Source: Chitinivibrio alkaliphilus ACht1
GTDB taxonomy: Bacteria > Fibrobacterota > Chitinivibrionia > Chitinivibrionales > Chitinivibrionaceae
Direction of reading: 5' to 3'
Assembly: GCF_000474745.1 (NCBI RefSeq)
Contig: NZ_ASJR01000004.1
Coordinates: 55,988 to 119,987 of the forward strand
DNA: 64,000 nucleotides
Of the stretch, positions 10-54,001 are shown piece after piece. Within the stretch, counting starts at the first letter, position 1. Every line of letters begins with the position of its first letter. A model generated the notes under the pieces. It was not told the origin of the DNA. It worked only from the letters and a program-made list of their open reading frames with translations, and searched no databases. The translations under genes and the position numbers were made by a program.

Positions 10-1386
10 TTGTGGCGAAATATGTTTGTTCGAGGTGTTGAGAATATTCTCTTGGCAACAGGCACACTCCTTTTGCTTGCCACATCTTTCTATGACATGT
101 ATTTTATCCTTGTTGAGAAGGAGCCCTTTTTCTGGTCTACTGCCTATGGGTACATGGGGTTATCTGTTGCATGTGTATGTGTTTTAATGATTCATCACAA
201 GCGTGACATCGCTTCTATTGAGTTACAGAAGCTTGAAATTGATCAGACCAGTAGAAAATTACTGCATTCAAATCAGATGTTAGTAGAGTCTACGCGAAAG
301 ATAGAGGAATATGCTCATCTGAAAAATCGGTTCATTAAAAGTATTACCCATGAAATAGTTACTCCAATTAATGGAATCGCCGATTCAACTGATTATTTGC
401 GGAGTCTTGATTTTGAAAGGGATACAGCTGAGCCTTATATTGATAACCTACTCATCTCCTACTATAATTTAACGATCCTTTTTAATAATTTAGTTGATTA
501 TACCAGTCTTGATGAGTCAGATATCACCTTAGAATGTCATAAGTATAATTTTGAAAAATCTATACAGCGTCTGGTTGAGTATACTCGTAAGAATGCTCAG
601 TCAAAGGGGTTGACCTTTTCCTTTGAATATACCTCAGGTGGCTTGCCCTCCTTGGTGTATGGTGATGAAAAGCGAATCGCTCAGGTAATTCTTAATTTAT
701 TAAATAACGCGATAAAGTTTACCGAATTTGGTTCTGTTACCCTTAAGATATCCTGCGAAGAACATACTCTGTTTTGCTCAGTAAGTGATACTGGTGTCGG
801 GATAGATCCGACTCTGAAGGAAAATATTTTTAAGGCCTTCACCAGTGAACGGTCCTACTCGACGGGAAAAGAGATGTATGCAAATATTGGCTTAGGTTTA
901 GCCATTACCCACAGAATTGTCACATCCATGGGGGGAAATATTTCCTTTAGGAGTAGAAAAAATCGTGGTTCTACGTTCTCTATTGAGGTTCCGCTTCAGC
1001 GTATCTCAGATTCCCCCAGTACGGACTCTTCTATAGAGCAGAAAAGAATTTTGGTGGCTGAAGATAATCCCATTAATCAGAAACTTATTACGATTCTCTT
1101 AAAGACCTATAATTTGGTAGCTGTTGTAGTCGGAAATGGCTTTGAAGCTGTTGAGCGGGTGAAGCAAGAGTCCTTTGATTTGGTTATTATGGACATTCAA
1201 ATGCCTGTAATGGACGGACTTGAAGCGACGCGTGAGATAAAGAAATTATGTCCCTCTCTGCCCGTTATTGCATGGACTGCAAACAGTACCAGTGTTGAAT
1301 GTTCAGCCGCAGGTGTCGATGGCTTTTTATCAAAACCAACCTCAAGAGAATCGTTATATCACGAAGTTCTGGATAGAATTACATAA
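10..1386 (+). CDS. Hybrid sensor histidine kinase (2 TM, HisKA, HATPase_c, C-terminal REC). The frame is open to the window edge, so the gene may start slightly upstream.
   Basis: H-box 'ITHEIVTPINGI'; N/G boxes 'LLNNAIKFT', 'DTGVGI', 'GLGLAI'; receiver 'ILVAEDNPINQ...DLVIMDIQMPVMDG'. Confidence 0.8.
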   Translation: MWRNMFVRGVENILLATGTLLLLATSFYDMYFILVEKEPFFWSTAYGYMGLSVACVCVLMIHHKRDIASIELQKLEIDQTSRKLLHSNQMLVESTRKIEEYAHLKNRFIKSITHEIVTPINGIADSTDYLRSLDFERDTAEPYIDNLLISYYNLTILFNNLVDYTSLDESDITLECHKYNFEKSIQRLVEYTRKNAQSKGLTFSFEYTSGGLPSLVYGDEKRIAQVILNLLNNAIKFTEFGSVTLKISCEEHTLFCSVSDTGVGIDPTLKENIFKAFTSERSYSTGKEMYANIGLGLAITHRIVTSMGGNISFRSRKNRGSTFSIEVPLQRISDSPSTDSSIEQKRILVAEDNPINQKLITILLKTYNLVAVVVGNGFEAVERVKQESFDLVIMDIQMPVMDGLEATREIKKLCPSLPVIAWTANSTSVECSAAGVDGFLSKPTSRESLYHEVLDRIT

Positions 1387-1475: not shown

Positions 1476-2618
1476 ATGTCAAAACCGAGCGGAAGGAGTT
1501 CCCGTGAATACACATCACGGCTCTACTCTGAAATGGCTGGTATTGAAAAATATGTGACGCGAGTGTTTTCAAAAGTTGCCTTTCCAAAAGAAGATATCGA
1601 CCGCCTCTTTTCTGTTGATAATGAAAGAGTTACTATTGTCTGTACTCATCGTAGCCATGCCGACTATCTTGTAACGGGCTTGGAGTTTATTCGAGAGGGG
1701 GTTCAGAATCTTCGTTTTGCTGCGGGAGATAATCTCACAGGACTTCCTTTTATTGGTATTCTCTTTCGTAAGGTCGGCTCTTTTACAGTACAGAGAGGTC
1801 GTGTACATAATCGACAGTATCTTTTTCGTTTGGCAGAGTTTGTAAAACGTCTGTTACAGCGGGGACAGAATGTACTTGTGTACCCAGAGGGGGGGCGAAG
1901 TTATTCTGGACGTATGCTGGAGATAAAAAGTGGTCTTATTGGTTCCACGATTATGGCGCAAAAGGAAAATCCCGAACGAGACTACTATATTTTGCCCATG
2001 GCTTGTTCCTATTCAGCAGTTCCTGAAGCGCAGTACTTTCATATTCTTCTTCGGGGTAAGGAGTGGCGAACCAAGAAGGGCTTTTTTATGAAAAGCCTTG
2101 GTTCACTTTTGTATTATGGTGCTGATGTGTGGACCTTTTTACAATTATGGTTATTTCCGCCAAAGAAAAATGAGATATACATAGATGTGGGTACTCCCGT
2201 TCGTGTAAAAGATATTACCGATGTTGAAGGGTTATATCGCAAGAATGCAAAGAATGAATTCTTTGCGAATGGGCGAGCAACCAAGGAGTGCTCGGTTTTT
2301 ATTAGGAAGCGTCTCTTACAGCTTTATCGAGTCCTTCCCCATAATATTGTTGCATACCTTATGGATACAAAGCTATATTACCAGGGAGAGTCAGCATCAA
2401 TAGAAAAGATTGAAGAGATTATTTCCTTCTTATCAACAAATGAGTGTAATACAAAGGGGCTTGATCATTTGTCTCCACAAGAGATTCTTTTGCAGGGGGG
2501 AGAGACGTTACGCTCTATGAAGGTTTGTCGAGAGAGAGGCAAGAAGGGTGTTGTGGTAAGAAAAAAAGACTTACTGCGGTATTATGCTAATACAGTATAT
2601 GATGTAATGGGAGAGTAG
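1476..2618 (+). CDS. GPAT/LPLAT-family acyltransferase (glycerol-3-phosphate/lysophospholipid acyltransferase-like)
   Basis: HX4D motif 'HRSHADY'; second acyltransferase motif 'VYPEGGRS'. Confidence 0.55.
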   Translation: MSKPSGRSSREYTSRLYSEMAGIEKYVTRVFSKVAFPKEDIDRLFSVDNERVTIVCTHRSHADYLVTGLEFIREGVQNLRFAAGDNLTGLPFIGILFRKVGSFTVQRGRVHNRQYLFRLAEFVKRLLQRGQNVLVYPEGGRSYSGRMLEIKSGLIGSTIMAQKENPERDYYILPMACSYSAVPEAQYFHILLRGKEWRTKKGFFMKSLGSLLYYGADVWTFLQLWLFPPKKNEIYIDVGTPVRVKDITDVEGLYRKNAKNEFFANGRATKECSVFIRKRLLQLYRVLPHNIVAYLMDTKLYYQGESASIEKIEEIISFLSTNECNTKGLDHLSPQEILLQGGETLRSMKVCRERGKKGVVVRKKDLLRYYANTVYDVMGE

Positions 2619-2619
2619 C

Positions 2620-4005
2620 ATGGGGTTTAGCGAGTTTATCAGTTGTGACGATATTATTGAGTTGGAGTCGGAAGATAAGGTTTCCGCCATAACCGAACTT
2701 GCCGAAGCCTTTTGTGAGATCCAAAAATGTGACAAGGCAAAACGTCTTATCAAAGATATCATTGCGCGGGAAGAGGCGGCATCGACCTTCGTTGGACAGG
2801 GTGTTGCCATACCACAGGCTGTAATGAATATGAAAGATGAGTATGCCATTATGGTGGGACGGAGCGCCATAGGCATCGATTATGGTGCGGTGCGTAATGC
2901 TCGGGCTCACATTATTGCCTTGGTTATTTCTAAGAAAAACATTGACGATGATGATACCTTTGAAGTTCTTTCGGAAATTTCAACATTCTTCCGTAATGAG
3001 ACGGTAAATAAGCTTATTCGGAGTGCAGAAGTTGAACGCCTTTCTGAGGTGATTTCAGAAGTTCGCAAAGAGGGTGATGATGACAAGGTACTGCCCGGTA
3101 AGAAAAAGACGACTACCAAGGGTAAGAAAGAACCGTTACTTTCTGCGGCAACAGCTCTTGCACGAGATGTGAATGCAAAGGCGGTAATGGTTTATGCCGA
3201 TGCAAAAAAAGATAATGAATTTATAAAAAATTTACGTACCCGTCGTCAAGTTATCGTTGTTACTTCAAATAAAACGCGTTTTAAAGATGAAGATTCGAAA
3301 TATTATTTAATTCAAGCCCCGCCTGCCCGTGGAGGATTTGGGTATGGGCAGGCAAAAATTGGGGTTCTTCTTGGGGTGTCAAAGGGCTTTTTGGGAAAAA
3401 ATGATACGGTTGTGTGTGTAACAGGGGACGAACATCAGGGGATTTTTAACTCCGTGGTTGTGATTGATATCGCTCATGAATTTGATTTCTTCTTCAATGC
3501 AACCAGTTCCATTGTTCCTGATGATGTAAAACCGGAAATTTTGGAGCGTGTACTCGGGCTTGCCTCAGAGATCAGTCTCGAAGGGCGTGAAAAACATCCT
3601 GTGGGAACTATTTTTGTTGTCGGTGATACAAACCGCGTAAATACCTACGTGACCCAGCTGATAATTAATCCGTTCCGCGGACTGAGCGAGTCTGAACGGA
3701 ATATCCTTGACCCAGGCCTGCAAGAAACGGTAAAGGAGTTTGCCGCTATTGACGGGGCTTTTGTTATTACCGGGGACGGAGTTGTTGTTTCTGCGGGAAG
3801 CCATTTGCGCCCCGAGCTTTCATCGGAGCAGAAAGAGAATCGTCGTGATCTTCCCAGTGGACTCGGTGCACGCCATGCTGCAGGTGCAGACATTACAGCT
3901 TGTTCTAATTCAATAGCTATTACCATTTCCGAATCAACCGGTCAAATTACGGTGTTTAAAAATGGGGATATTGTACTTACCCTTCAGCGTCCTTTGATAC
4001 CATAA
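2620..4005 (+). CDS. Diadenylate cyclase (DAC/DisA_N domain) with an N-terminal degenerate PTS EIIA(Ntr)-like domain and a central pyruvate-kinase-C-like alpha/beta domain
   Basis: C-terminal DAC motifs 'IDGAFVITGDGVVVSAG' and 'GARHAAGADI...SESTGQITV'. N-terminal EIIA-2-like 'REEAASTFVGQGVAIPQA', with Gln where the phospho-His sits. Middle 'AKAVMVYADAK...VVCVTGDEHQG' resembles PK_C. Confidence 0.65.
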   Translation: MGFSEFISCDDIIELESEDKVSAITELAEAFCEIQKCDKAKRLIKDIIAREEAASTFVGQGVAIPQAVMNMKDEYAIMVGRSAIGIDYGAVRNARAHIIALVISKKNIDDDDTFEVLSEISTFFRNETVNKLIRSAEVERLSEVISEVRKEGDDDKVLPGKKKTTTKGKKEPLLSAATALARDVNAKAVMVYADAKKDNEFIKNLRTRRQVIVVTSNKTRFKDEDSKYYLIQAPPARGGFGYGQAKIGVLLGVSKGFLGKNDTVVCVTGDEHQGIFNSVVVIDIAHEFDFFFNATSSIVPDDVKPEILERVLGLASEISLEGREKHPVGTIFVVGDTNRVNTYVTQLIINPFRGLSESERNILDPGLQETVKEFAAIDGAFVITGDGVVVSAGSHLRPELSSEQKENRRDLPSGLGARHAAGADITACSNSIAITISESTGQITVFKNGDIVLTLQRPLIP

Positions 4006-4006
4006 T

Positions 4007-4300
4007 ATGAAGTCCCTACTCAAATATATACGTATTCGGGATATTCTCTTATTATTGTTCCTTTTATGGGGGGGGAATTTTATATTCGGTACTCGTGGTG
4101 TTATTGCCCTCCAGCGTATTGAGAGGGCGAATGAACGGCGACAACAAGAGATACACCGGTATACTCAGAAATTAGACTCTCTTACAACTTATGCAGAGCT
4201 CTTAGAAAAGGATACAACCTATATTCGACGAATGGTGAAACAAAACATGGGGTATATCGATTCCGGAGAACGAATAATCCGCTTTGTTGACGAGGAATAG
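4007..4300 (+). CDS. FtsB/DivIC-like septum formation initiator (single TM plus coiled coil)
   Basis: N-terminal TM 'ILLLLFLLWGGNFIF', then a coiled coil 'LQRIERANERRQQEIHRYTQKLDSL'. About 97 aa, typical of the family. Confidence 0.4.
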   Translation: MKSLLKYIRIRDILLLLFLLWGGNFIFGTRGVIALQRIERANERRQQEIHRYTQKLDSLTTYAELLEKDTTYIRRMVKQNMGYIDSGERIIRFVDEE

Positions 4301-6099
4301 TGGATTCATCCCGCTTTCATGAAGTAAAAGAGCAGATTCGCGGCTCCATTGATATTGTATCATTTATTGAACGATACATTCCCTTACGGCGAGCTGGAGA
4401 AAACTACAAGGGCTTATGCCCATTTCACAATGAAAAATCCCCCTCCTTTGTGGTAAGTCCGCATAAGGAGATTTATCACTGTTTTGGCTGTGGAGCTGGG
4501 GGCGATCTTTTTGCCTTTATTATGGATATTGAAGGGTGCTCTTTTCGGGAAGCCTTAGAGATTGCTGCCAATGAAGCCGGGATCGATTTACAAAAACATG
4601 AAATTCCGGGACGGAGAAGGGGGGATTCCCCCAATTATGCCAGTACCGTACCTAAAGACTTTTTGTATCGGGCAAATTCCTATGGGGCGCATTATTTTTA
4701 TGCCAACATACGAAAGAGTGAACGGGCTATTTCCTTTTTCAAACACCGAGGTCTTTCAGCAGAAATTGTACGTGAGTTTAAGCTTGGATATGCACCAGAT
4801 CACTGGTCTGACTTTTCACAGGTAGCACAGGAAGACGGGTATTCTCGGAAAGTTCTTATTGCAGCTGGTCTTTCTTTGTCCCCCGCTCGGGGCAGCAGTA
4901 TTTATGATCGCTTTCGTCATCGTATTATGTTTCCTATTTTTGATGTATCAGGGAGGGTGATTGCCTTTGGAGGAAGGGCTTTGGAAGACGATCAGCAACC
5001 CAAATATGTAAATTCTCCGGAAACAGAAATATATCGGAAGAACAAGACGCTCTATGGCCTTAATTTTGCGCGTCCATTCATCCGCGATTCCCAAGAGATA
5101 CTGATCGTTGAAGGATATATGGATATGATATCTCTCTATGCGCGGGGCGTGTGTAATGTTGTTGCCACATGCGGCACTGCCCTTACAGTAGAGCAGGGCC
5201 GAATCTTGCGCCGCTTTGCTCCGCGGGTGTATCTCATCTTTGATGGTGATTCTGCGGGGATTGCTGCAGCCAAGCGAGCCATAGAAACTTTGATATCCCT
5301 GGAGTTGGATCTACGTATCGCCGTTCTTCCGCAGGGAGAAGACCCTGATACGCTTATCCAAGAAAAAGGGAAAGAGGGGTTTTTATACTTTGTACATAAA
5401 TCGCAAGAGGCTTTAGGGTTTTACATGGAATTTCTTAAAAAATCTCTTGATACGACGACTCCCCAAGGTCGATCTCAAGCGGTAGAACACTGTATTAGCC
5501 TCATAAGCCGAGTGGATAACCAAATTTTGGCATCGGAGTATGCACGCGAGGTCGCATTTATGTTTTCGGTTGATGAATCTCTTGTGATATCACGACTTAC
5601 CGGAAAAAAGCAAAGTGGAAATATACGAAGAGTGTCCTCTGAAGATGTTTTTCAACACAATGAGGGTGAGGGTTTTGAGACAACCGAAGAGGGGTCTTTG
5701 CTCCATTTTCTCGTTCAATATCCAGAATACGTCGAGCGCTATGCCTACCGTATTCAAGAAAATTTATTTATTGACCCTACCCATAAAGAGGTGTTTTCAT
5801 GTATCTTGAAACATGGAAAAGAGTTAAATAAGAATGTGGGTGCTGTTGAGAAGGAGTCTTTGCGGAAACTTCTTTCATATTTATTTATGAAAGAAATAGC
5901 AGTACAGCAAGATCATGATGAGTGGATAGAGTATAAACTTTCACGCTTGGAGAACTCCTTGGTGGCACGAAGAAAGAATCGTTTGGTAGAAGAGATTGCA
6001 CGAGCTCGTGATGCAGATACAAAACAGGCGTTACTAGCAGAATTAAATTCACTGACCGTACGGAAAAGCAGCGAGGAAGATATTCGTGGTGAGCAATAA
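4300..6099 (+). CDS. dnaG: DNA primase
   Basis: CHC2 zinc finger '[11 protein letters not shown]...CFGCGAGGD'; Toprim '[13 protein letters not shown]'; overlaps the downstream rpoD start. Confidence 0.9.
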
Positions 6100-7624
6100 T
6101 ACCAGTGGGAATGAAAAGATTATCAAACATTTTCGTAAACAGGCTCGGGTACAGGGGTTTGTCAGTGAAATAGAGATTAATGAGAATATTAGTTCTGAGG
6201 AAGAACGAACTCGCATTAAAGATCTTCTTACTGCTGAGGGCATAGAGATTAATCCCTTTGTTAAACGCCATAAATTGCGGAGCCCCAAAGATAAGCCGTA
6301 TAGCGGGGGTGGTCGTGGGAGTGCATCAAATGCTGCAATTATGTCCTATTTAAACCAAGTGGGGAATATTCCTCTCATGGATAAGGGACAAGAAATACAC
6401 TATGCTCGGCAAATGGTCTTTGCAAAGAATAAGCTTCTCGAAAGTGCCTTTGGGTCCTTGGTTATTCAAGAATTTCTTTTTCGTCTATACAATGAAATGC
6501 GTGACGGTGTCCTTTCATGGTATGATATTTTTGACCTTGATAGGGTTGCTCCCGATGGAAATGATGCGACGGAAGAAGAAATAGAGCACGCTCGGGAAAA
6601 TTTCTTTGCCCGCATAGAACAAATTGATGAGCTATCTGAACAAATCACCGCCCTACGTCGTGACGCAGAGGAGGTTACAACGCCCGAAGAGCGGCACGAG
6701 TGTGCAGAGAAAACTCGGGGGCTTCTTGATTCTCTTGTTGAACATTGCTTCTTTCTCCACTTAAATTATAAGCAGAAAGAAAGTATTATTGAAAAATACC
6801 GTCAATGGTTATGTAAGAACAGTTTCTCTACAGAGCTTCGCAATTTTGAGTCGTGGCAGAAGGTATACTTTGATGCCAAATACTCCATTGTTGAGGCGAA
6901 TGTGCGGTTGGTTATCAGTATTGCAAAGAAATATTCCTATAGCGGTATGGAAATGCTTGATATCATCCAAGAGGGGAATGAAGGGCTGATAAAAGCGGTT
7001 GAGAATTTTGATTATCGGAAAGGGTATAAGTTTTCTACCTATGCAACGTGGTGGATACGGCAGTCTATTACGCGTGCTATTAATGATAAGGGGAAAGCCA
7101 TTCGCATACCTGCAAACACCCTTGAACAGATAAATCGTGTGAATCGTTATATCCAAAATTGCGTCATGCGCACCGGCTCTGAGCCGGCTATTGAAGAAAT
7201 TTCCCAGGAGTTGAAGATTCCTGAGAGAAAAATCCGTATGATTCTACAGTACAATGGAGACCCCATATCCCTCGACTGGCAAATTTCTGAAAATGGAAAT
7301 TCCACCATCGGAGATTTTATACCTGATGAACGAATGGGTGATCCCAGTACTTCAGCAACGATAAAATGTTTTAAAGAAAATATCCATGCCTTGCTTGAAG
7401 AGCTTGACCCTTATGAGCGAGAGATTCTATTCCGTCGCTTTGGCCTTGATGGGGCAAAACGTAAGACCCTTAATGAGATTGGTGAAATGTTTAACATTTC
7501 CCGTGAGCGGGTTCGTCAGATTGAAACTGGTGCTCTGGAAAAGCTTCGTCACCCCAGCAGAAACAGTGTGCTTCGTGACTGGGAGCATAGCCGTGATGAG
7601 TTTGAGTCACTCCCGGATTATTAA
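6086..7624 (+). CDS. rpoD: RNA polymerase primary sigma factor (sigma-70)
   Basis: Region 2 '[14 protein letters not shown]'; region 4 HTH '[20 protein letters not shown]'; classic dnaG-rpoD gene order. Confidence 0.9.
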
Positions 7625-7731: not shown

Positions 7732-8856
7732 ATGAAGATACCGGGGTGCATCATAGATACGGATATTAAGCGTGTTGTCGTGAAGATTGGCAGTAAGATT
7801 CTTACACCAACCTCACAGGGAGAGCACATTGGGCGTATATCAGCTCATATAGCAGATATACTCTCTCTTATGGAACAAGGTGTTTCTGTGGTTCTGGTTT
7901 CATCGGGAGCTGTGTCCCATGGACGTGTAAAGCTACAGCTTTCCCAACGGCCTCGGACAATTCCCCTAAAACAAGCCTGTGCCGGTGTCGGGCAGATAGA
8001 ACTGCTAACTCTATACTCTCGACTGCTCGAGAAAAAGGGTGTGCAGTGTGGCCAGATTTTACTTACGTGGGATGATATTGCAGATAAAAAACGCTATAAC
8101 AACTTACGTAACGCCTTGTTCACCATGCTTGATAACGGTATTCTTCCTATTATAAATGAAAATGATAGTGTTGGTGTTGAAGAGATTACCTTTGGGGATA
8201 ATGATACCTTGGCAGCGCAGATTGCAACAATACTGAATGCTGATCTCTTTGTAATGCTTACAGATATCAATGGCGTGTATACGGCAAATCCGCAGAAAGA
8301 TCCTGAGGCTCAACAACTTCAGCAAATAGAAAAAATAGATAACTCCCTACGTGCCATGGCCGATGCAGACGGAAGTGATGTAGGAACGGGGGGGATGGTG
8401 ACCAAAATAAATGCTGCAGATATGGTGACTCGAGCCGGTATTGCCGCGGTTATTGGGAATGGATACGATTACTCTTTGCTCTCTCTTTTGCGTATGTCCG
8501 GGGTCAGTACGTTTTTTGTGCCGACGCAGAAACGAATGAGTGGCAAAAAAAGATTTCTTGCCTTCACTGATACCCCTACGGGAACTGTTTACGTAGATCG
8601 CGGGGCGTATACCGCCATTGCGACCAAGGGGAAAAGTCTTCTTCCAGCGGGAGTACTCTCTGTTTCAGATGGCATTCAACCGGGAGATACTGTTGATATC
8701 TGTTGTGAGGGGCGTTCTTTTGCCCGGGGGATATCAAACTATGCGACGGAAGATATACGAAAAATCAATGGAAAGAAAACAGAGGATTTAGCTCGTATTT
8801 CCGGTGAAGGAACGTATAATGAAGTAGTACATCGAAATAATCTCGTTGTATTATAA
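7732..8856 (+). CDS. proB: Glutamate 5-kinase with a C-terminal PUA domain
   Basis: AA-kinase fold 'VVKIGSKILT...VSSGAV'; 374 aa with a PUA-like tail 'GDTVDICCEGRSFARGISNY'. Confidence 0.85.
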   Translation: MKIPGCIIDTDIKRVVVKIGSKILTPTSQGEHIGRISAHIADILSLMEQGVSVVLVSSGAVSHGRVKLQLSQRPRTIPLKQACAGVGQIELLTLYSRLLEKKGVQCGQILLTWDDIADKKRYNNLRNALFTMLDNGILPIINENDSVGVEEITFGDNDTLAAQIATILNADLFVMLTDINGVYTANPQKDPEAQQLQQIEKIDNSLRAMADADGSDVGTGGMVTKINAADMVTRAGIAAVIGNGYDYSLLSLLRMSGVSTFFVPTQKRMSGKKRFLAFTDTPTGTVYVDRGAYTAIATKGKSLLPAGVLSVSDGIQPGDTVDICCEGRSFARGISNYATEDIRKINGKKTEDLARISGEGTYNEVVHRNNLVVL

Positions 8857-8894: not shown

Positions 8895-11051
8895 ATGCGC
8901 TTAGTTTTGGCGATAGTTCTCGGGATTCCTGTTATCCTTTCAGCAACCACCTATGGGGGGAATGGCGCTGAGGTGCATACGCATGACCTAATGACTCTTC
9001 TTATGATACAGCTCGGGATTATTATCTTTGCTTCGCGAGTTGGGGGAGCTCTCTTTACACGTTTTCGTTTGCCCTCGGTACTGGGAGAAATATTTGCAGG
9101 TGTATGTATTGGTCCCCACATGCTTGGGGGGGTACCTCTTCTTGGGTTTCATAATGGCCTGTTTCCTCTCAGCTCATCTAACGGGATTCCTGTTTCGCCT
9201 GAGCTGTATGGTCTTGCTACGGTTGCATCAATTATACTTCTCTTTATGGCGGGGCTGGGTACAGACCTGAAGATGTTCTTGCGGTTTTCCCTTGCGGGAA
9301 GTGTGATTGGAATCGGAAGTGCTCTTATTGCCTTTTCTGCTGGTGCGGGGATTGCTGCTTTTTTCTTAAATTTGCCTATTACAGCTCCTTTACCGCTTTT
9401 TCTTGGTGTGGTATCCACAGCGACCTCCGTTGATATTACCGTGCGAATACTGTCAGAAAATAAAAAGCTTGATACTCCCGAGGGAGCAACTATTATTGCC
9501 GGTGCAGTGGTTGATGATATTTTCAGTATTGTTTTACTTGCCATGATAACCGGGTATGCCGTGTTGGAGGGGGTTCATGTCTCTTCGCAGTGGTTTCATG
9601 TTGGTATTATCGGGATTCGTGCTGTTTTTGTGTGGATCTTTTTTACTGTGCTGGGGCTTCTTTTCTCTGAAAAGATAGCTTTGTTTTTAAAGAAAAGCAA
9701 AAGTATTGACACTATTGCCATACTGAGTTTTGGTTTGGCCCTTATTCTTGCAGGGGTATTTGAGCGTGCCGGTCTTGCCATGATTATCGGGGCCTATATC
9801 ATGGGTCTAACTCTTTCTAAAACAGATCTCAGTCTTTCAATTCAAGATAAATTGCAAAGTTTAGAACATTTTTTTGACCCCATATTCTTTACGACCATTG
9901 GAATGTTTGTAAATGTGTTTAGTTTTTTGTCTCCCACGATACTTCTTTTTGGTATTGTTTTCTCTCTGGGAGGTATTATTGCAAAGCTTGTGGGATGTAG
10001 TATTCCCTCCTATTTTCTCAATTTTACTCACTTAGGAGCCGCACGTATTAGTTTTGGTATGATTCCCCGGGGAGAAGTGGGCTTGATTTTTGCGGGCTTA
10101 GGGTTATCCACGGGCATTTTAACACAGGATACCTTTGCCGTATCAGTTATGATGGCGGTTTCATCAACGGTTGTGGGGCCTGTTGTTCTTGAACGTCTCT
10201 TGCGTAAAGATAAAAAAGGTACGCGTCATGATATTGTTCTTGTGGAAAAAGTGCAGGTGCGGTTTCATTGTAGTAGTAGTGATTTAGCAGACTTAGTAGA
10301 GCGTAATGTTATTGATGCATATAGCAGTGAAGGGTTTTATGTTACCCGTCTTGAATCTGACCATGGGACGTATCACTTTCAAAAAGAGGATAGCTTAATT
10401 ACCCTGTATCGTGATGGAGTTGAAATGATTTTCGAAACTCCCGTGGATGATGAATCCTATGTTCGCAATATTCTCTATGAGACCATGGCAGATTTAAGTA
10501 GCCTTGTAAATACGGTAAAAAAGCTCGTGCGTCCAGAAGAGATGAAAAAGGAGTTTGCTCAAACTGCACAGCGGGTTAAATTTAATTTGGGCCATGTCTT
10601 TCGCCCTGAATTAATTGAGATGGATCTTCGAAGCGATACAAAGGAAGGGATTTTGCGCGAGCTTGTACACATCCTCACTCTCAATGGCTATATTGTTGAT
10701 GAAGCGGGAGCTTTAAAGGTTGTGTGGGATCGTGAACATGCCGTGAGTACAGGTATGGAAAATGGCGTCGCCCTACCTCATGGTCGGTTTTCTGGAGTAA
10801 ATGAATTGACTTCAGTTATCGGCTTTCATCGGGAGGGGGTTGATTTTAACTCCATGGATGGTAAACCAGCCCATGTTTTTGTTCTAACTCTTGTTCCTTC
10901 AGAAGTACAGGCTCCATATGTTCAATTTTTGGCGGCCATTGCCTCAGCACTAAATGGACCGCAGCGAGTAGCAACACTCTTAGAAAAGAAAACAAAAATT
11001 GAAGTTCTTGACTTTCTTAAAGAGTGCAACGATGATTCAAGAGAAAAATAA
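8895..11051 (+). CDS. Cation/H+ antiporter (CPA family membrane domain) fused to a cytoplasmic linker domain and a C-terminal PTS EIIA type-2 (Ntr-type) domain
   Basis: About 430 aa of polytopic membrane domain. The C-terminal region 'LIEMDLRSDTKEGILRELVHIL...ENGVALPHGRF...HVFVLTLVP' retains the conserved His. Confidence 0.75.
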   Translation: MRLVLAIVLGIPVILSATTYGGNGAEVHTHDLMTLLMIQLGIIIFASRVGGALFTRFRLPSVLGEIFAGVCIGPHMLGGVPLLGFHNGLFPLSSSNGIPVSPELYGLATVASIILLFMAGLGTDLKMFLRFSLAGSVIGIGSALIAFSAGAGIAAFFLNLPITAPLPLFLGVVSTATSVDITVRILSENKKLDTPEGATIIAGAVVDDIFSIVLLAMITGYAVLEGVHVSSQWFHVGIIGIRAVFVWIFFTVLGLLFSEKIALFLKKSKSIDTIAILSFGLALILAGVFERAGLAMIIGAYIMGLTLSKTDLSLSIQDKLQSLEHFFDPIFFTTIGMFVNVFSFLSPTILLFGIVFSLGGIIAKLVGCSIPSYFLNFTHLGAARISFGMIPRGEVGLIFAGLGLSTGILTQDTFAVSVMMAVSSTVVGPVVLERLLRKDKKGTRHDIVLVEKVQVRFHCSSSDLADLVERNVIDAYSSEGFYVTRLESDHGTYHFQKEDSLITLYRDGVEMIFETPVDDESYVRNILYETMADLSSLVNTVKKLVRPEEMKKEFAQTAQRVKFNLGHVFRPELIEMDLRSDTKEGILRELVHILTLNGYIVDEAGALKVVWDREHAVSTGMENGVALPHGRFSGVNELTSVIGFHREGVDFNSMDGKPAHVFVLTLVPSEVQAPYVQFLAAIASALNGPQRVATLLEKKTKIEVLDFLKECNDDSREK

Positions 11052-16531: not shown

Positions 16532-16901
16532 GCACATAAATGCATGTGGAGAGCGTTTGTGTACGGTTTTTTCAGAACAGGTTTCCTGTTATGAAGCACT
16601 CTTACATATCACGAAAAAACTATCCGGCTCCATTGCTGTATCCAAGGGAGATCTTACTTCTCTTATGTCTGTCATGGAGGAAAAGCAGCAGCTCATGCAG
16701 CATCTTGATACGTTAACGTCTGAGAATCAGACTGAAATGACCCTGTGGCAGGCAGAGCGGGAACATGCTTCTGAATCTGTGAGAGAGCAGGTGAATTCCT
16801 CCTTGGATAGAGTAACCCAGGCCATAGAACGATTTCTTCAAGCGGAGAAGCAATTACAAAAACAACTGGAGTTTTATGGAACAGCCGGAAAAACAGAATA
16901 A
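16521..16901 (+). CDS. FlgN-like coiled-coil protein. The assignment is tentative.
   Basis: ATG overlaps the TPR gene stop; 126 aa, helical and Q/E-rich ('MEEKQQLMQHLDTLTSENQ'). Confidence 0.35.
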   Translation: MGDKHINACGERLCTVFSEQVSCYEALLHITKKLSGSIAVSKGDLTSLMSVMEEKQQLMQHLDTLTSENQTEMTLWQAEREHASESVREQVNSSLDRVTQAIERFLQAEKQLQKQLEFYGTAGKTE

Positions 16902-18141
16902 CTCCACACCCCAGGAAGAACAGTTAAAGGAAATTATCCGTGATTTTGAAAAGCAATCACAGGTATTAACTCAGGCGTATCGTTCCATGGAGGAACAGTT
17001 TGCGGCATTAAATCTTGAGCTTGATTCAAAAAATAAAGCCTTAGAGAGTGCTCTTGCAGAAAAAGATGCGACATATACTCTGCTAAATTCCACCTTAGAA
17101 ACAATGCATAATGGGGTGATTGCCATTGATGTTGATGGAGTGGTAACGGTATTTAATTCAGCTGCAGAGAATATCTTAGGATATGCGCGGGATGAGGTAG
17201 TAGGGCAAACTATTACCACGGCGTTTTTGCATCATACCTTCTCAGAAAATTCACTGTGCGACACCTTTGATTCAGGATGTAATCATGAACTCGATGAGAA
17301 ATTTATCTGGGATAAAGAAGGGCGTCCGGTTCCAGTGAAATTTCAAAGCTCTCTTCTCTATAGTCCCTCAGGGGTTCTTCTTGGTGCTGTGGAGATATTT
17401 AGTGATCTTTCCCGGGTAAAGCAACTTGAAGAGGAGAATGCTCAAAACAAAACCCTCGCTGCCTTAGGGGAAATGGCTGCAACCTTGTCCCACGAAGTTA
17501 AAAATCCTCTTGGTGCCATGGGCACATGGGCACGTCTTTTGGATAGAAGTATTGCCTCTGAAGATACTAAAAGCCGCACTATTCTTGCTCACATCACCGA
17601 TGCCTTAACGCGATTAAATAAAATTGTCTCCAGTATGCTCATATTTGGCCGTCAGAGTGAATCAAGCCAATTACAGCGATGCAATTTGAGAGATCTAATG
17701 TGTGAACTGGCTGATAGTATGGAGGTTGAAATGGTATTTACCTCCGGGAAAGATATAACCTTTCTCCGTGAGTGGGATACGCGTGATCTTTTTGTTCGTG
17801 TTGATCCGGAAAAAATACGCCAGATTGTAATGAATTTAATGATTAATGCTATTCATGCCATAGATGAAAAGGGTACCATTACGTTGAAAATGGAAGGGAT
17901 TGATAAACGGGGTGATTCCTATGCAAAAATAACCCTTTCGGATACGGGGTGTGGGATCGCCGAGTCCACAAAGGAGCTTTTGTTTCGTCCCTTTCATACT
18001 ACAAAGGAAAATGGTACGGGCCTTGGTCTTGCTATTGTGCAGAAGTTGGTTGCCTTCCATAAGGGAACAATACAGGTTGATTCAACCCCGGGAGAAGGAA
18101 CAGCAATGCACCTGTTTCTTCCCGTTGATATCGTACAGTAA
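16876..18141 (+). CDS. PAS-domain sensor histidine kinase
   Basis: PAS 'MHNGVIAIDVDGVVTVFNSAAENILGYARDEVVGQ'; H-box 'LSHEVKNPLGAM'; HATPase 'LMINAIHA', 'DTGCGI', 'GTGLGLAIV'. Confidence 0.8.
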   Translation: MEQPEKQNNSTPQEEQLKEIIRDFEKQSQVLTQAYRSMEEQFAALNLELDSKNKALESALAEKDATYTLLNSTLETMHNGVIAIDVDGVVTVFNSAAENILGYARDEVVGQTITTAFLHHTFSENSLCDTFDSGCNHELDEKFIWDKEGRPVPVKFQSSLLYSPSGVLLGAVEIFSDLSRVKQLEEENAQNKTLAALGEMAATLSHEVKNPLGAMGTWARLLDRSIASEDTKSRTILAHITDALTRLNKIVSSMLIFGRQSESSQLQRCNLRDLMCELADSMEVEMVFTSGKDITFLREWDTRDLFVRVDPEKIRQIVMNLMINAIHAIDEKGTITLKMEGIDKRGDSYAKITLSDTGCGIAESTKELLFRPFHTTKENGTGLGLAIVQKLVAFHKGTIQVDSTPGEGTAMHLFLPVDIVQ

Positions 18142-21321: not shown

Positions 21322-23307
21322 ATGGAAGATGCTTTTACCAGCAGTGGCGTGGCATTTGCCTTTGGTGTTATCACGGGAGGGTTTATTGCGGTACTCCTCT
21401 CCATACTCTTTTTTATTATAGAAAACAGAGTACGATATGGACGGGAGAAGGAAAAGGAGCTTGTTGCTAAGACCGTGTCCGGACTCATGCGTCGTGTAAA
21501 TCATATTTTTATCAGCTATCGCTTGGGGGATATATCTTTCCGGCAGATGGAGGCAGAAAGCCGTGAGGTGATCTCTCAAATAGACGAGGAAGTTTCGGAA
21601 AATTCAGTCTTTTTGAACAATTCCTATGTTTCTATTATTCAACAGTATATCGATGAAAAAAATGAGAGCCTTGTAACAATTAAGGAGAGTTTGTCCGCTT
21701 CGTCAACCCAGGCAGCGGCCACAGATTACATACCCGATGGGGCTTCTTTCCAGAATGAATATGCACCTCGCATATCTTCAGCCACAGAGAATACAACTAC
21801 CCAAGAAGAAGAGGGGAGAGTTTCTTCTACAGATACTCAGGAAAAAGAAGCCCCCTTGGTATCACGCGAGTCTGAGACGATGGAAGCTCCCTCCACGGAG
21901 GACAACGCCTTCACAGATCTTACAGAATATATTGCCGGAGATGCTACGGATGAACCTCAGGATACAGAACCGGCTGTTTTTGAAAAAGATGATCGCCGAG
22001 ATACTGGATTAGAAGAACGGACGGTTACGGAGCAAACATCCGATGCGGCGTCTGGCGATATAGAACCTACTTATGCGGCGTCTGAAGATTTGAATGTCAG
22101 TGGTACAGAAGTGCTTAAGGACGATGCACTGTTACATGAACAAGATACTTCTGGTGTACATGGTTCTCATGATGAGGATGAGTCTTTCTCTCTTGGTGAT
22201 TTTATGGAAGAGAAATCTATGAAGGAGACAGTGGATACTTCTGCCGTAGATGAGATGGACGAGTCTGAATCTGGGGATGGTTCGAAGGAGCTTTCCCTCG
22301 ATGAAGCTGAATCTACGCCCCGTGATGCTACTGAGGATGCCTCCTTCTCCTTTGCGGGAAAACAAGATTTTACCGTCGAGGAAGAAGACGACTCTCATCC
22401 TGAGACTGAAGACGGTGCTTCATTAGGCCAAGAGCAGGAAACACCACACCACGAAAATAACGAGGAAGAGTTTGTTGATCTCCATTCTTCCGATCTTGCA
22501 ACTTCTGCTGCATCGAAGGAAAATTCCTCTTCGATGGAAGAACAAAATCAGGAGTCAGATGTCTCCTTGGCGATTGACGAAGATGATTTTAGTTTTGCTA
22601 TTGATAAGGCGTTTAATCTCACCTCGGAGGATGAGGAAGATGCGGTGGAGCAAGAGAACACATCCTTAGATGCAACCATTGAGCTTTCATCGGATACTCT
22701 CATGAGCGATGATACCTTGGCAGAGGAATCCCCCTTTGACTTCTCCTTTCATAGTGGGGGTGAAACCGAACAGAGGCAGACCGGAGATGAGGCTCCTACT
22801 GATCTTTCTGATCGTTCCCTGGATAGTATTGGCTTGGACGTATCTGAAGATACGGATGAAGCGTTTCCTTCTTTTCAGCATACTGATGAAGGCACATCCT
22901 TAGATACAACCATTGAGCTTTCGTCGGATACTCTCATGAACGATGATACCTTGGCTGAGGAGTCACCCTTTGACTTTTCCTTTCGCAGTGGAAGTGAACC
23001 TGAAAAGACTCAAGCTGATGATGAGTCTTCTCCTATTCCCGCGGAAAGTCCCCTTAATAGCATGGGTTTTGATTTTTCTGAAGATACAGAGGATGATTTC
23101 TCTTCCTTAGAAAGTCCCTTGGAGCGTACGCAGGAATTTAATCTTAATGACACAAGTGTACCCCTAGATCAGATAGATGTGGAAGCAACGCAGGAGTTTA
23201 ACCTCAACGACCTCATGTCTCAAGCAGAAGAGAGTAATGACTTGGATGATCAAGATATGGTGAGTGGGGACGATGTGGCGAATAAACTGGATGATCTATT
23301 TAAATAA
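21322..23307 (+). CDS. Membrane-anchored, highly acidic low-complexity protein with two tandem ~79-aa repeats
   Basis: N-terminal TM 'VAFAFGVITGGFIAVLLSILFFII', then a D/E/S/T-rich ~580 aa region. Repeats 'TIELSSDTLM[SN]DDTLAEESPFDFSF' appear twice, and 'TQEFNLND' appears twice. Confidence 0.55.
   Translation: MEDAFTSSGVAFAFGVITGGFIAVLLSILFFIIENRVRYGREKEKELVAKTVSGLMRRVNHIFISYRLGDISFRQMEAESREVISQIDEEVSENSVFLNNSYVSIIQQYIDEKNESLVTIKESLSASSTQAAATDYIPDGASFQNEYAPRISSATENTTTQEEEGRVSSTDTQEKEAPLVSRESETMEAPSTEDNAFTDLTEYIAGDATDEPQDTEPAVFEKDDRRDTGLEERTVTEQTSDAASGDIEPTYAASEDLNVSGTEVLKDDALLHEQDTSGVHGSHDEDESFSLGDFMEEKSMKETVDTSAVDEMDESESGDGSKELSLDEAESTPRDATEDASFSFAGKQDFTVEEEDDSHPETEDGASLGQEQETPHHENNEEEFVDLHSSDLATSAASKENSSSMEEQNQESDVSLAIDEDDFSFAIDKAFNLTSEDEEDAVEQENTSLDATIELSSDTLMSDDTLAEESPFDFSFHSGGETEQRQTGDEAPTDLSDRSLDSIGLDVSEDTDEAFPSFQHTDEGTSLDTTIELSSDTLMNDDTLAEESPFDFSFRSGSEPEKTQADDESSPIPAESPLNSMGFDFSEDTEDDFSSLESPLERTQEFNLNDTSVPLDQIDVEATQEFNLNDLMSQAEESNDLDDQDMVSGDDVANKLDDLFK
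22661..23130 (+). repeat. Two tandem ~235-bp coding repeats (about 90% nt identity across the first ~85 bp) inside the acidic protein gene
   Basis: Unit starts at ~22661 and ~22895 ('catccttagat[gc/ac]aaccattgagcttt...'). Confidence 0.7.
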
Positions 23308-27681: not shown

Positions 27682-29022
27682 ATGAGTTTTCCTGATTCTT
27701 TTCTCTGGGGGGCATCCACTGCGGCGTATCAAATTGAGGGTGCTGCTGCAACAGATGGTCGAGGTGCCTCTGTGTGGGATGCTTTTTGCCGAAAACCCGG
27801 AGCGGTGGTTGGAGGAGAAACGGGAGATGTGGCCTGTGATCATTACAATCGATATGCTGATGATATTGCCCTCTGGGCGTCTTTAGGGCTACAATCATAT
27901 CGCTTCTCCCTTTCGTGGTCACGCCTTTTTCCTCACGGCCGGGGACGGGTAAATTCCAAGGGGGTCGATTTCTATAATCGCGTAATTGACACGTTGCTGT
28001 TCCACAATATTACTCCGGTCATAACGCTCTTTCATTGGGACTTTCCCCTTGACTTATTTTATCAAGGGGGATGGCTTCATCGTGATAGTGCCTATTGGTT
28101 TGCCGACTACGCAGCCTTCGCAGCTCAAACCTTTGGCGATCGGGTTACATGGTGGATTACTCAGAATGAACCTCAGTGCTTTATTGAACTTGGGCATAAG
28201 ACTGGCTATCATGCACCGGGGCTTTCTCTACCGCAACGTGAGGTTTTATGGGCTGCTCATAATTCCCTTCGGGCCCATGGCTGTGCCTACGGACAAATGA
28301 AAGAGGTGCGGAATTCTCTCATGGTTGGGTATGGTCCCGTTGGCGTAACGTCTATCCCACAGGAGGAGACTTCAAAAAATATCATGCAGGCACGCCACCA
28401 CATGTTTTCACATACAGATGAGTCTCTTTTTACCAATACATGGTTTATGGACCCTGTTTTTAAGGGGGAATACCCTGAAGATGGGTGTCATTTCTATGGT
28501 ACAGATATGATTGAGTTTCACAGCAGTGATATGGAGGAAATTCATCAAGGTGCAGACTTCCTCGGTACAAACATCTATCACGGTACCTATATTAATGATA
28601 CAGGGGGTGAAGTAGCACCACCGCAAGGACATTCCACCACAGCCATGGGGTGGCCCATAACTCCCCGTGCGCTCTATTGGGGGCCTCGCTTCCTCTCTGA
28701 GCAGTATGGAGTACCCCTCGTCGTCACCGAAAATGGTATGGCCGGCACAGATTACGCAATGCCAGATGATACCATTATCGAAGACCCGTATCGAGTAGCC
28801 TATTTACGGCAGTATCTTCAAGAGCTTCGTCGGGCGTGCCGTGAAGGTGTTGACGTCCGTGGATACTTTGTGTGGTCAGCCCTTGATAATTTTGAGTGGG
28901 CAGAAGGATACGGAAAGCGCTTTGGTATTGTCTATGTCGATTATGAGACCCAAGAGCGTTTCTGCAAAAGGTCAGCCTTATGGTATAAAGAGGTTATAGA
29001 GAGCAATGGAAGAAATCTTTAG
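27682..29022 (+). CDS. GH1 beta-glucosidase
   Basis: N-terminal 'FLWGASTAAYQIEGA'; acid/base 'ITQNEP'; nucleophile 'VVTENGMA'. Confidence 0.85.
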   Translation: MSFPDSFLWGASTAAYQIEGAAATDGRGASVWDAFCRKPGAVVGGETGDVACDHYNRYADDIALWASLGLQSYRFSLSWSRLFPHGRGRVNSKGVDFYNRVIDTLLFHNITPVITLFHWDFPLDLFYQGGWLHRDSAYWFADYAAFAAQTFGDRVTWWITQNEPQCFIELGHKTGYHAPGLSLPQREVLWAAHNSLRAHGCAYGQMKEVRNSLMVGYGPVGVTSIPQEETSKNIMQARHHMFSHTDESLFTNTWFMDPVFKGEYPEDGCHFYGTDMIEFHSSDMEEIHQGADFLGTNIYHGTYINDTGGEVAPPQGHSTTAMGWPITPRALYWGPRFLSEQYGVPLVVTENGMAGTDYAMPDDTIIEDPYRVAYLRQYLQELRRACREGVDVRGYFVWSALDNFEWAEGYGKRFGIVYVDYETQERFCKRSALWYKEVIESNGRNL

Positions 29023-43194: not shown

Positions 43195-43195
43195 T

Positions 43196-50271: not shown

Positions 50272-50440
50272 GTGGCAAAAGGAGTGGTAAAACTTCGCTT
50301 TTTTTTAAAATTGGAATCTCCTGTCCATGGGGTATTAAATGAGCAAAAATGTCAAAAGATAAATATGAAATATGAACAGTTTTGTATATACTATACAGTA
50401 AGCAGTAATAGGATATACCACCGTGACAAGTGAGTTGTGT

Positions 50441-51655: not shown

Positions 51656-51683
51656 TTAGGTACTGTAACCAGATGGAGTTGAT

Positions 51684-53887: not shown

Positions 53888-54001
53888 TGGCAATTATGTC
53901 AGAAATGTATTAAATTACTACGGAGATGAAACAGAACAGGAACTACTCCTGGGTTGGTTTTCATAGAGGATATTACGGTGTTTTACAAAAAGAGGTTGTG
54001 T

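Follow-up and report, generated by a model that had tools for sequence, protein, structure and literature searches.

A predicted DacZ-type diadenylate cyclase of Chitinivibrio alkaliphilus with an EIIA(Ntr)-like domain lacking the phospho-acceptor histidine

The stretch of the Chitinivibrio alkaliphilus ACht1 genome analysed here (64,000 nt; the window) contains a gene for a protein in which a PTS EIIA type-2/PtsN-like domain, a domain related to the C-terminal domain of pyruvate kinase (PK_C) and a diadenylate cyclase (DAC) domain follow one another (Table 1). The architecture is not a discovery; the gene is correctly annotated and belongs, as one ordinary member among many, to a large catalogued family. 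What is modestly new is that the acceptor His of the EIIA-like domain is replaced and drifting in Fibrobacterota, with the surrounding loop and nearly all other family-conserved residues fixed. The protein is probably an active, soluble DacZ-type cyclase whose EIIA-like module stands outside the PTS phosphorelay and has been kept for a structural or regulatory purpose; we infer both the activity and the role of the module.

Table 1. Features of the cyclase gene and its neighbours (positions in the window)
Feature	Position	Strand	Details
Short PlsB-like glycerol-3-phosphate acyltransferase core	1476..2618	+	380 aa; PF01553; abuts the DAC gene upstream
DAC gene ORF	2620..4005	+	461 aa; ATG start; complete; EIIA-like + DacZ_P + DAC
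PTS EIIA type-2/PtsN-like domain	2656..3060	+	residues 13-147
Gln66 codon (CAG)	2815..2817	+	phospho-acceptor His position of EIIA-2/PtsN
Thr113 codon (ACC)	2956..2958	+	second active-site His position
Lys/Asp-rich disordered linker	3073..3123	+	residues 152-168; pLDDT <50
DacZ_P domain, PK_C-related alpha/beta module	3127..3489	+	residues 170-290
DAC catalytic domain	3574..3969	+	residues 319-450; DGA 378-380, RH 418-419, S-x-S-T 437-440
DivIC/FtsB-like	4007-4300	+	downstream of the DAC gene
DnaG	4300-6099	+	downstream of the DAC gene
RpoD	6086-7624	+	downstream of the DAC gene

Domain layout and family of the protein

The ORF delimited in an earlier note on this DNA, and the six peptides quoted from it, were found exactly in place (GVAIPQA at residues 61-67, AKAVMVYADAK at 186-196, VVCVTGDEHQG at 264-274, DGAFVITGDG at 378-387, GARHAAG at 416-422 and SESTGQITV at 437-445). 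The note had recognised a C-terminal DAC, and Pfam bore this out (PF02457, 68.5 bits against a cut-off of 27), the DAC fold being matched too. The N-terminal kinship with EIIA type 2/PtsN also held, by profile (PTS_EIIA_2, 63.1 bits against 27) and by fold. The middle domain, which had been called PK_C-like, matched the folds of the pyruvate kinase C-domain and of AF0103 and scored 80.5 bits with DacZ_P (PF21755; cut-off 27.4), the Pfam models DacZ_T and DacZ_A touching it as well; PK_C itself (PF02887) reached 17.9 bits, under its cut-off of 28, so that the domain is related to PK_C at the level of superfamily or fold only and is not a PK_C member. Since a dedicated Pfam model exists for it, this domain is not new. 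No transmembrane segment was detected, indicating a soluble protein. Alignments with homologues start at residue 1 of the N-terminus, and the linker shows low conservation and a length that varies among them. The AlphaFold model has low confidence in the arrangement of the domains relative to one another (pTM 0.43), so the scaffold mechanism proposed below takes no support from it. The idea of a horizontal-transfer island was unsupported, the GC content of 0.43 being like that of the remaining window, and no Rfam family, c-di-AMP riboswitches included, was found in the 64 kb.

The DAC domain is the most conserved part of the protein, with a mean pairwise identity of 0.78 in the Fibrobacterota clade. 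Residues D378, R418, H419 and S437 were invariant in 198 family members, and G379, A380, S439 and T440 were conserved in at least 90% of them. The RHR motif reads R418-H419-A420, with an Ala that may affect catalysis, and the ‘SEETG’ of CdaA reads ‘SESTG’, substitutions that might be taken to indicate a pseudo-enzyme or a c-di-AMP receptor in place of a cyclase. Both variants, however, are the norm across the DacZ-type family: they are seen among the 120 Verrucomicrobiota homologues, 118 of which carry Ala as third residue of RHR. Further, the DGA motif is kept, the invariant residues listed above lie in the most constrained domain, and the protein was found in every Fibrobacterota lineage sampled, as expected of a housekeeping enzyme. 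A non-catalytic protein is thus most improbable. Judged by its sequence, the gene product is a probable c-di-AMP-synthesising enzyme, and it is probably a housekeeping c-di-AMP synthase, one that is conserved across Fibrobacterota.

The earlier note matched this architecture to none of the DAC classes it named (DisA, CdaA, CdaS, CdaM), leaving out DacZ/CdaZ, whose defining feature is a PK_C-like domain preceding the DAC (PMC6741144). The combination of PK_C-like domain and DAC is that of this known class (DacY; Haloferax volcanii DacZ, Methanocaldococcus jannaschii CdaZ), in which, as in the Chitinivibrio protein, the PK_C-like domain comes immediately before the DAC on its N-terminal side. 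Cyclase activity is established for enzymes of the DacZ class (Braun 2019, PMC6741144), among them M. jannaschii CdaZ, as cited in PMC10249747. The NCBIfam DacZ model aligned over residues 185-456 with 114.1 bits, and the DAC motif variants are common to the class; with a cut-off of 430 for the haloarchaeal DacZ equivalog (NF041371), the protein is a DacZ homologue and not an equivalog. Unlike the archaeal enzymes, it is bacterial and has an additional N-terminal EIIA-2 domain of ∼150 aa.

The three-domain combination is not new either. It was present in all of the best 120 listed homologues (two of them missing no more than their precomputed DacZ_P mark) and across some 100 divergent clusters at 50% identity; homologue P0124 has the same three Pfam domains, and a search from the Opitutales homologue P0153 gave 2,908 matches, placing the Verrucomicrobiota-type sequences above 2,900. 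The EIIA_2-DacZ_P-DAC design therefore spans Fibrobacterota, Verrucomicrobiota and Planctomycetota with thousands of proteins, and the Chitinivibrio protein aligned over its full length with members from the latter two phyla at 30-38% identity. This family probably corresponds to the class named ‘DacD’ in the census of Corrigan & Gründling 2013, a circumstantial link drawn from the ‘DacD’ representatives listed by Braun 2019 (PMC6741144), all of them Verrucomicrobia of taxa with this architecture. Within the searchable literature, full-text searches yielded no description of an EIIA-DAC fusion and no enzymatic or phosphorylation data on any EIIA-DacZ_P-DAC member.

The acceptor position of the EIIA-like domain

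In alignments, Gln66 falls in the column of the phospho-acceptor His of the solved PtsN proteins 2a0j (‘GQGVAIPHG’), 4gqx and 3urr, so that the ‘A-[ILM]-P-H’ loop of EIIA type 2/PtsN is present without its His, as the earlier note had claimed. The second active-site His is likewise absent, its place being taken by Thr113 in alignments with solved PtsN proteins and family representatives; at this position, the equivalent of H111 in EIIA-Mtl and H120 in PtsN, 53 of the 81 family representatives (the Chitinivibrio protein included) have His and 13 have Tyr. Compared with PtsN, EIIA(Ntr) and EIIA-Mtl, the domain thus lacks both active-site His residues and shares its polypeptide with an enzyme, and its scores lie far below those of the PtsN equivalogs (29.9 against 138.7 bits for TIGR01419; 20.4 against 221 bits for NF008145). 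The picture drawn in the earlier note, a c-di-AMP synthase governed by a PtsN-like module that cannot be phosphorylated, appears to be a fair one.

The residue at position 66, read from alignments, follows the lineage. Outside Fibrobacterota it was His in 75 of 77 three-domain representatives, and in 116 of 120 Verrucomicrobiota homologues. Within the Fibrobacterota clade (n = 121) it was Gln in 69 sequences, His in 24, Tyr in 12 and Lys in nine, with others in the rest; the residues met there include Q, K, Y, S, T, L, F, I and R. Counted by species genome, 44 of 66 had Gln and 16 His. At the 64 positions conserved in at least 80% of sequences outside Fibrobacterota, the consensus of the phylum departs only at position 66 (and at L415F). 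Within the clade the loop is kept, E51, F57, G59 and A63 being present in all 121 sequences and G61 and P65 in 120, and the mean pairwise identity of the EIIA domain (0.52) is nearly that of DacZ_P (0.57), which argues that the EIIA domain is not decaying. On this sequence comparison, and with a history of position 66 that NJ and parsimony trace only roughly, the loss of the His is a derived state specific to Fibrobacterota and not a property of the architecture. The term ‘degenerate’, used in the earlier note for the EIIA domain, suits Fibrobacterota; it does not describe the architecture, in which the His is conserved elsewhere. His at position 66 in about one quarter of Fibrobacterota, whether reverted or retained, suggests that phospho-control may persist in some lineages.

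A domain that cannot accept phosphate might still report PTS status by docking HPr/NPr, or HPr~P, on its conserved active-site surface, the cyclase then sensing the phosphorylation state of the carrier through binding and not phosphotransfer. This would fit a clade-invariant loop in which the acceptor residue alone changes, and the EIIA-Mtl chain of the solved structure 2few, reportedly an engineered H65Q protein made for studying a PTS protein complex, has Gln at the acceptor position. HPr-type phosphocarriers persist in Fibrobacterota: the HPr of F. succinogenes is Fisuc_1002 (PMC5442110), and an HPr-like ORF with an intact His (GLHLRPAA) occurs in a Q-type locus (L052). No EI or HPr gene was found in the 64-kb window, and for Chitinivibrio these carriers are presumed from the HPr of other Fibrobacterota and from a CPA2 antiporter, encoded 5 kb away in the window, that bears an EIIA domain with its His. 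The tolerance of very different residues at position 66 is hard to square with a precise docking site, and docking was judged unlikely.

Genes adjacent to the cyclase gene

The last base of the upstream acyltransferase gene (2618) all but touches the start of the DAC gene (2620). The acyltransferase scored 97.9 bits with TIGR03703 (plsB), below the cut-off, and matched the glycerol-3-phosphate acyltransferase structure 9vuq in the PDB (E 1.9e-18). In 58 of the 66 Fibrobacterota genomes the DAC gene is preceded, at a distance of at most 110 nt, by an acyltransferase homologue; those loci of Verrucomicrobiota and Planctomycetota that were inspected lacked the pairing. A metagenomic protein, P0122, joins acyltransferase, EIIA, DacZ_P and DAC in one chain, although it comes from a single 13-kb contig, has a truncated acyltransferase part and may reflect a deletion or an assembly artefact. 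A link between the loss of the His and the acyltransferase neighbour was considered and rejected, H-type Fibrobacterota having the neighbour too.

The pseudo-EIIA domain might have been re-purposed in Fibrobacterota to contact the acyltransferase, whose gene is predicted to be co-transcribed, thereby linking c-di-AMP to phospholipid synthesis. The phylum-specific pairing, the abutting genes and the P0122 fusion would favour such a contact. However, the pairing is equal in H-type and Q-type members and so does not track the loss of the His, the fusion carries the doubts just mentioned, and synteny alone is no proof of physical interaction; the contact is accordingly held to be highly doubtful. 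A broader scenario, in which Fibrobacterota cut their c-di-AMP synthase from an ancestral PTS phosphorelay by neutralising the His, kept the domain, and re-wired the enzyme to membrane-lipid synthesis via the adjacent acyltransferase, is decidedly unlikely.

The three genes downstream of the DAC gene (4007..7624) abut or overlap and probably form one operon. The order DAC, DivIC/FtsB-like, DnaG, RpoD is shared with the nearest relatives (L008, L028, L035 and L072); in 40 of the 66 Fibrobacterota loci it is replaced by a phosphoglucose isomerase gene directly downstream. This last neighbour would suit a different explanation, namely that DacZ_P is the real sensor, binding a central metabolite such as a sugar phosphate and setting the cyclase allosterically, and that the EIIA-like domain is vestigial. 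Such a sensor would also be consistent with the fold likeness to two ligand-binding proteins, given that PK_C reportedly binds FBP and AF0103 FMN (Braun 2019, PMC6741144), and with the clade-invariant polar residues D194, R220, Q232 and Q244. Against it, PK_C falls below the Pfam cut-off, and the only DacZ_P residues conserved family-wide are A177, L250, G269 and D277; with almost no polar residue among them, no common ligand pocket is evident. Moreover, an EIIA domain as conserved as DacZ_P in the clade is not a decaying vestige. A metabolite-sensing DacZ_P domain with a vestigial partner was thus considered about as unlikely as docking.

Proposed role and its meaning

The preferred explanation, a cyclase with a retained module outside the phosphorelay, would run as follows. 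The protein would be the Fibrobacterota orthologue of the EIIA-2/DacZ_P/DAC family of Verrucomicrobiota and Planctomycetota, whose cyclases have the same domain order and share its family-conserved residues bar one, the acceptor His that is Gln in Chitinivibrio. In the family at large, the His-bearing EIIA(Ntr)-like domain presumably receives phosphate from a carrier of the HPr/NPr type, and c-di-AMP synthesis would in this way be tied to the phosphorylation state of the PTS. With the acceptor His replaced in Fibrobacterota, and in Chitinivibrio the second His too, no phosphate would be taken up at the canonical site, and the EIIA fold and active-site loop would still be under purifying selection. 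The EIIA-like and PK_C-like modules may then form a fixed scaffold, structural or regulatory, that mimics the unphosphorylated state and sets the head-to-head pairing of two DAC domains. This pairing is a required catalytic step in all DACs. The N-terminal modules may also bind a partner or ligand. The DAC gene is predicted to be expressed together with that of the PlsB-like acyltransferase, which would suggest that c-di-AMP is coordinated with membrane-lipid synthesis and envelope growth.

Parallels exist in other bacteria. In two reported cases, an EIIA protein acting in trans determines how much of a nucleotide second messenger is present: EIIA-Ntr~P acts on SpoT/Rel in Caulobacter (PMC4848567), and in Vibrio cholerae the target of EIIA-Glc is a c-di-GMP phosphodiesterase (PMC6877527). 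There the EIIA is a separate protein whose phospho-state matters, whereas the Chitinivibrio module is part of the enzyme itself and, in this lineage, is predicted to be unable to take up phosphate. The CdaA-CdaR-GlmM system of Firmicutes resembles the predicted Chitinivibrio arrangement in that the gene for a housekeeping DAC shares a transcript with one for envelope biosynthesis, and resembles the proposed scaffold role in that DAC-DAC pairing controls cyclase activity; the CdaA-GlmM complex 9g69 was among the fold matches. CdaA, however, is membrane-anchored and has neither EIIA nor PK_C-like domains, and its partner is a peptidoglycan-precursor mutase, in place of the candidate lipid acyltransferase of the Chitinivibrio DAC.

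No part of c-di-AMP signalling is understood less well than the on-off control of diadenylate cyclases. The present family amounts to a natural experiment on it, since one enzyme occurs with an intact PTS-type phospho-acceptor in Verrucomicrobiota and Planctomycetota and with that residue neutralised in most Fibrobacterota. If the re-wiring scenario were true, c-di-AMP synthesis in Verrucomicrobiota and Planctomycetota would be directly controlled by HPr/NPr-dependent phosphorylation, a PTS-to-c-di-AMP link for which the searchable literature offers no experimental demonstration in any organism. If the His-bearing forms are PTS-regulated, the carbon and nitrogen status read by the PTS would be passed through c-di-AMP to K+/osmolyte and envelope homeostasis, the role played by free PtsN in Proteobacteria, which mostly lack c-di-AMP.

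Domain composition and active sites of the cyclase

The limits proposed in the earlier note for the diadenylate cyclase (DAC) gene proved exact, and all six peptide strings quoted there were found at the expected residues. The GC content of this ORF was similar to that of the remainder of the window, and its product was 100% identical to the NCBI entry 'diadenylate cyclase [Chitinivibrio alkaliphilus]'. Pfam searches identified PTS_EIIA_2 (residues 13-147; 63.1 bits), DacZ_P (PF21755, 'probable sensor domain'; residues 170-290; 80.5 bits) and DAC (residues 319-450; 68.5 bits), all above the curated cut-offs. With 17.9 bits, PK_C proper stayed below its cut-off of 28. The middle domain is accordingly a relative of PK_C, and a dedicated Pfam family (DacZ_P) already exists for it. 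In NCBIfam, the haloarchaeal DacZ model matched residues 185-456 with 114 bits, far below its equivalog cut-off of 430, and sub-threshold matches were obtained for fructose-type EIIA, PtsN, CdaA, CdaM, CdaS and DisA. These matches show that the protein had been correctly read as a fusion of EIIA-2, PK_C-like and DAC domains. No hydrophobic stretch long enough for a membrane helix was found anywhere in the 461 residues; the cyclase is soluble, has three domains and keeps its DAC active-site signature intact.

In phmmer alignments, Gln66 fell exactly on the phospho-acceptor His of solved PtsN proteins ('GQGVAIPQA' in the cyclase, 'GQGVAIPHG' in 2a0j and 'GEGVAIPHG' in 4gqx/3urr), so the claimed change of this His to Gln holds. 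The EIIA-Mtl chain of structure 2few, which we take to be an engineered non-phosphorylatable mutant, also has Gln in this column. The column of the second active-site His was occupied by Thr113; the EIIA fold of the Chitinivibrio cyclase thus has neither active-site His. In the DAC domain, D378, R418, H419 and S437 were invariant in 198 aligned family members, and G379, A380, S439 and T440 were each at least 90% conserved. The departures from the CdaA consensus (RH-A in place of RHR, and S-x-S-T in place of S-E-E-T) are the norm in this family and are shared by an archaeal DAC locus (L083). Since the catalytic residues are conserved and the deviations family-typical, diadenylate cyclase activity is likely, and it is unlikely that the protein is a pseudo-enzyme.

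Spread and earlier description of the architecture

The three-domain design was present in all 120 matches listed of 648 close homologues (two lacked only the precomputed DacZ_P mark); the named ones were Fibrobacter, Chitinispirillaceae and Chitinivibrionales. In an exhaustive HMMER search, 2,388 of 1.84 billion cluster representatives matched, with about 100 distinct 50%-identity clusters aligning full-length at 30-40% identity; two-domain DacZ_P-DAC proteins of about 300 aa were also among them. Named members of the divergent clusters were Verrucomicrobiota (Verrucomicrobiia, Opitutales) and Planctomycetaceae. An Opitutales protein (P0153) used as query retrieved 2,908 further matches, the best 120 of which all had the three domains (one without the precomputed DacZ_P mark); isolates among the matches listed included Rubellicoccus peritrichatus and Cerasicoccus maritimus. 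When one genome was scanned for each species, 66 Fibrobacterota species had the full-length protein, and Planctomycetota had both three-domain and two-domain forms. The HMMER matches also included relatives with other architectures (P0262, P0193, P0220 and P0251): DHH-DHHA1, DacZ_P and DAC, a possible phosphodiesterase-cyclase fusion; DacZ_P, DAC and a DAO oxidoreductase; and EIIA_2, a stretch of ~230-300 aa with no assigned domain, and DAC.

The PK_C-like plus DAC design corresponds to the DacZ/CdaZ (DacY) class, which occurs in some bacteria and is active in H. volcanii (Braun 2019, PMC6741144). According to PMC10249747, M. jannaschii CdaZ is active, and the classification of Galperin 2023, cited in PMC12901056, comprises 22 DAC families. 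The representatives listed for the older 'DacD' class were all Verrucomicrobia (Lacunisphaera, Coraliomargarita, Puniceicoccaceae and Opitutae; Braun 2019, PMC6741144). The EIIA-DacZ_P-DAC proteins were found here in the same taxa, which makes it very probable that this architecture was already in the catalogues in 2013, the link to 'DacD' being circumstantial. The 2023 census reportedly also defined three PK_C-related 'DacZ_N' domains. No mention of an EIIA-DAC fusion was found in open-access texts, nor any experimental work on this architecture in a literature search. The three-domain family is almost certainly a catalogued one and, within its Fibrobacterota branch, the Chitinivibrio protein is unexceptional. 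What the earlier note observed was confirmed and, of its interpretation, the domains and the His loss stand; the implied novelty of an architecture outside the described classes was not borne out, as this DAC family is widespread and annotated in databases.

Loss of the acceptor histidine in Fibrobacterota

His occupied alignment position 66, the acceptor column, in 75 of the 77 three-domain representatives from outside Fibrobacterota and in 116 of 120 Verrucomicrobiota homologues. Within the Fibrobacterota clade (121 sequences with at least 48% identity to the query), this position held Gln (69), His (24), Tyr (12) or Lys (9), besides Ser, Thr, Leu, Phe, Ile and Arg. For the 66 species genomes, the counts were 44 Gln, 16 His and one each of Thr, Tyr and Ser, with three unread. 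Fitch parsimony on a rough NJ tree placed His at the root and Gln in the Fibrobacterota ancestor, with at least 18 changes at this position within the clade; position 66 is now free to vary. The loop around it is frozen: E51, F57, G59 and A63 were present in all 121 sequences, and G61 and P65 in 120. Among the 64 positions at least 80% conserved outside Fibrobacterota, the Fibrobacterota consensus departs only at 66 (H to Q) and at 415 (L415F, a conservative change). Mean pairwise identity within the clade was 0.52 for EIIA, 0.57 for DacZ_P and 0.78 for DAC; EIIA and DacZ_P are conserved to a similar degree, and EIIA is therefore not in decay. The distinctive feature is a lineage-specific, targeted neutralisation of one site, the acceptor His, in this phylum.

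Gene neighbourhood and possible control of the cyclase

The cyclase belongs to a tightly packed string of five genes, which sets it a short way upstream of the dnaG-rpoD pair. The acyltransferase that abuts it matched PF01553, TIGR03703 (97.9 bits, below cut-off) and a PDB GPAT (E 1.9e-18). This five-gene order was found elsewhere only in four loci of relatives (L008, L028, L035 and L072). An acyltransferase homologue lay at most 110 nt upstream of the cyclase in 58 of the 66 Fibrobacterota genomes; it was absent from the Verrucomicrobiota and Planctomycetota loci examined. The downstream gene was PGI in 40 of the 66 loci, DivIC-DnaG occurring only in the Chitinivibrio-like sub-lineage. Co-location of the cyclase gene with a lipid acyltransferase is conserved, and recruitment of the EIIA-like domain by this enzyme would be one role for that domain, an unlikely one; the neighbour accompanies both Gln- and His-bearing Fibrobacterota cyclases. 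A 714-aa metagenomic protein (P0122) joins acyltransferase, EIIA, DacZ_P and DAC; this may reflect a genuine fusion, a deletion or a faulty assembly. As it comes from a single 13-kb contig and its acyltransferase part lacks the C-terminal ~120 aa, it was given little weight.

A conserved ORF of ~150 aa, with no match in Pfam or NCBIfam, lies just upstream of the acyltransferase-DAC pair in locus L001, with equivalents in 39 of the 66 Fibrobacterota loci; beyond it, these loci carry a divergent Mla (MlaE/F/D) lipid-transport operon. The ORF is absent from the Chitinivibrio window, a hybrid histidine kinase being found upstream in its place. In a Planctomycetaceae locus (L007), an HD-domain protein divergently adjacent to a His-bearing three-domain cyclase is a possible c-di-AMP phosphodiesterase partner. 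C. alkaliphilus has been described as a chitin specialist; glycoside hydrolase genes of the window are included in the table.

Positions of the features discussed, in the window or in loci of relatives
Feature	Sequence	Positions	Strand	Details
Kinase	window	10-1386
Five-gene string	window	1476-7624	+	PlsB-like acyltransferase, DAC, DivIC/FtsB-like, DnaG, RpoD; 1-nt gaps or overlaps
PlsB-like acyltransferase	window	last base 2618	+	380 aa
DAC	window	2620-4005	+	461 aa
proB	window	7732-8856
CPA2 (Kef-like) cation:proton antiporter	window	8895-11051	+	C-terminal PTS EIIA-2
Kinase	window	16876-18141
ORF	window	21322-23307	+	661 aa; no Pfam match at E <= 1e-5
GH1 beta-glucosidase	window	27682-29022
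Dense two-component cluster	window	40278-47473		histidine kinase; 523-aa response-regulator protein (output region without assigned family); RR-Hpt protein; 1046-aa multi-PAS hybrid kinase
Glycoside hydrolase cluster	window	50423-56314	+	two GH8, one GH9
ORF	window	53087-53887	+	266 aa; no Pfam match at E <= 1e-5
~150-aa ORF	L001	6283-6747
P0122	L006	6001-8145		714 aa
HD-domain protein	L007	7057-7878	-	273 aa
HPr/NPr-like ORF	L052	12992-13258	+	88 aa

PTS carriers are still present in Fibrobacterota. HPr is annotated in F. succinogenes (Fisuc_1002; PMC5442110), and in an uncultured Fibrobacterota genome (L052) an HPr/NPr-like ORF, its active site the canonical 'GLHLRPAA', follows a Gln-bearing cyclase at a distance of 5.6 kb. 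The 64-kb window was found to contain neither a PTS carrier nor a riboswitch, and no second DAC. The antiporter gene directly 3' of proB encodes an EIIA-2 domain with its acceptor His intact ('GVALPHG', residues 624-630). One organism thus uses two EIIA modules in cis, 5 kb apart: a phosphorylatable one on an ion transporter and, on the cyclase, one without the His. Antiporter residues ~440-565, between its two domains, had no Pfam match.

DAC domains make c-di-AMP only when paired head-to-head, and it is this pairing on which known regulators act, such as GlmM on CdaA or the N-terminal helices in CdaS. Signalling by PtsN runs through protein contacts that depend on its phospho-state. In the His-bearing relatives, the EIIA module would be phosphorylated by HPr/NPr, thereby tuning the cyclase. 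In Chitinivibrio, it would be locked in a non-phosphorylatable form and may serve as a scaffold, structural or regulatory, or as a surface for binding a partner. Docking of HPr on the EIIA-like domain without phosphorylation seems rather unlikely, and sensing of a metabolite by DacZ_P is similarly improbable. What remains of interest is that nature offers a clean contrast of orthologues with and without the His, through which a putative PTS control of c-di-AMP synthesis can be addressed directly.
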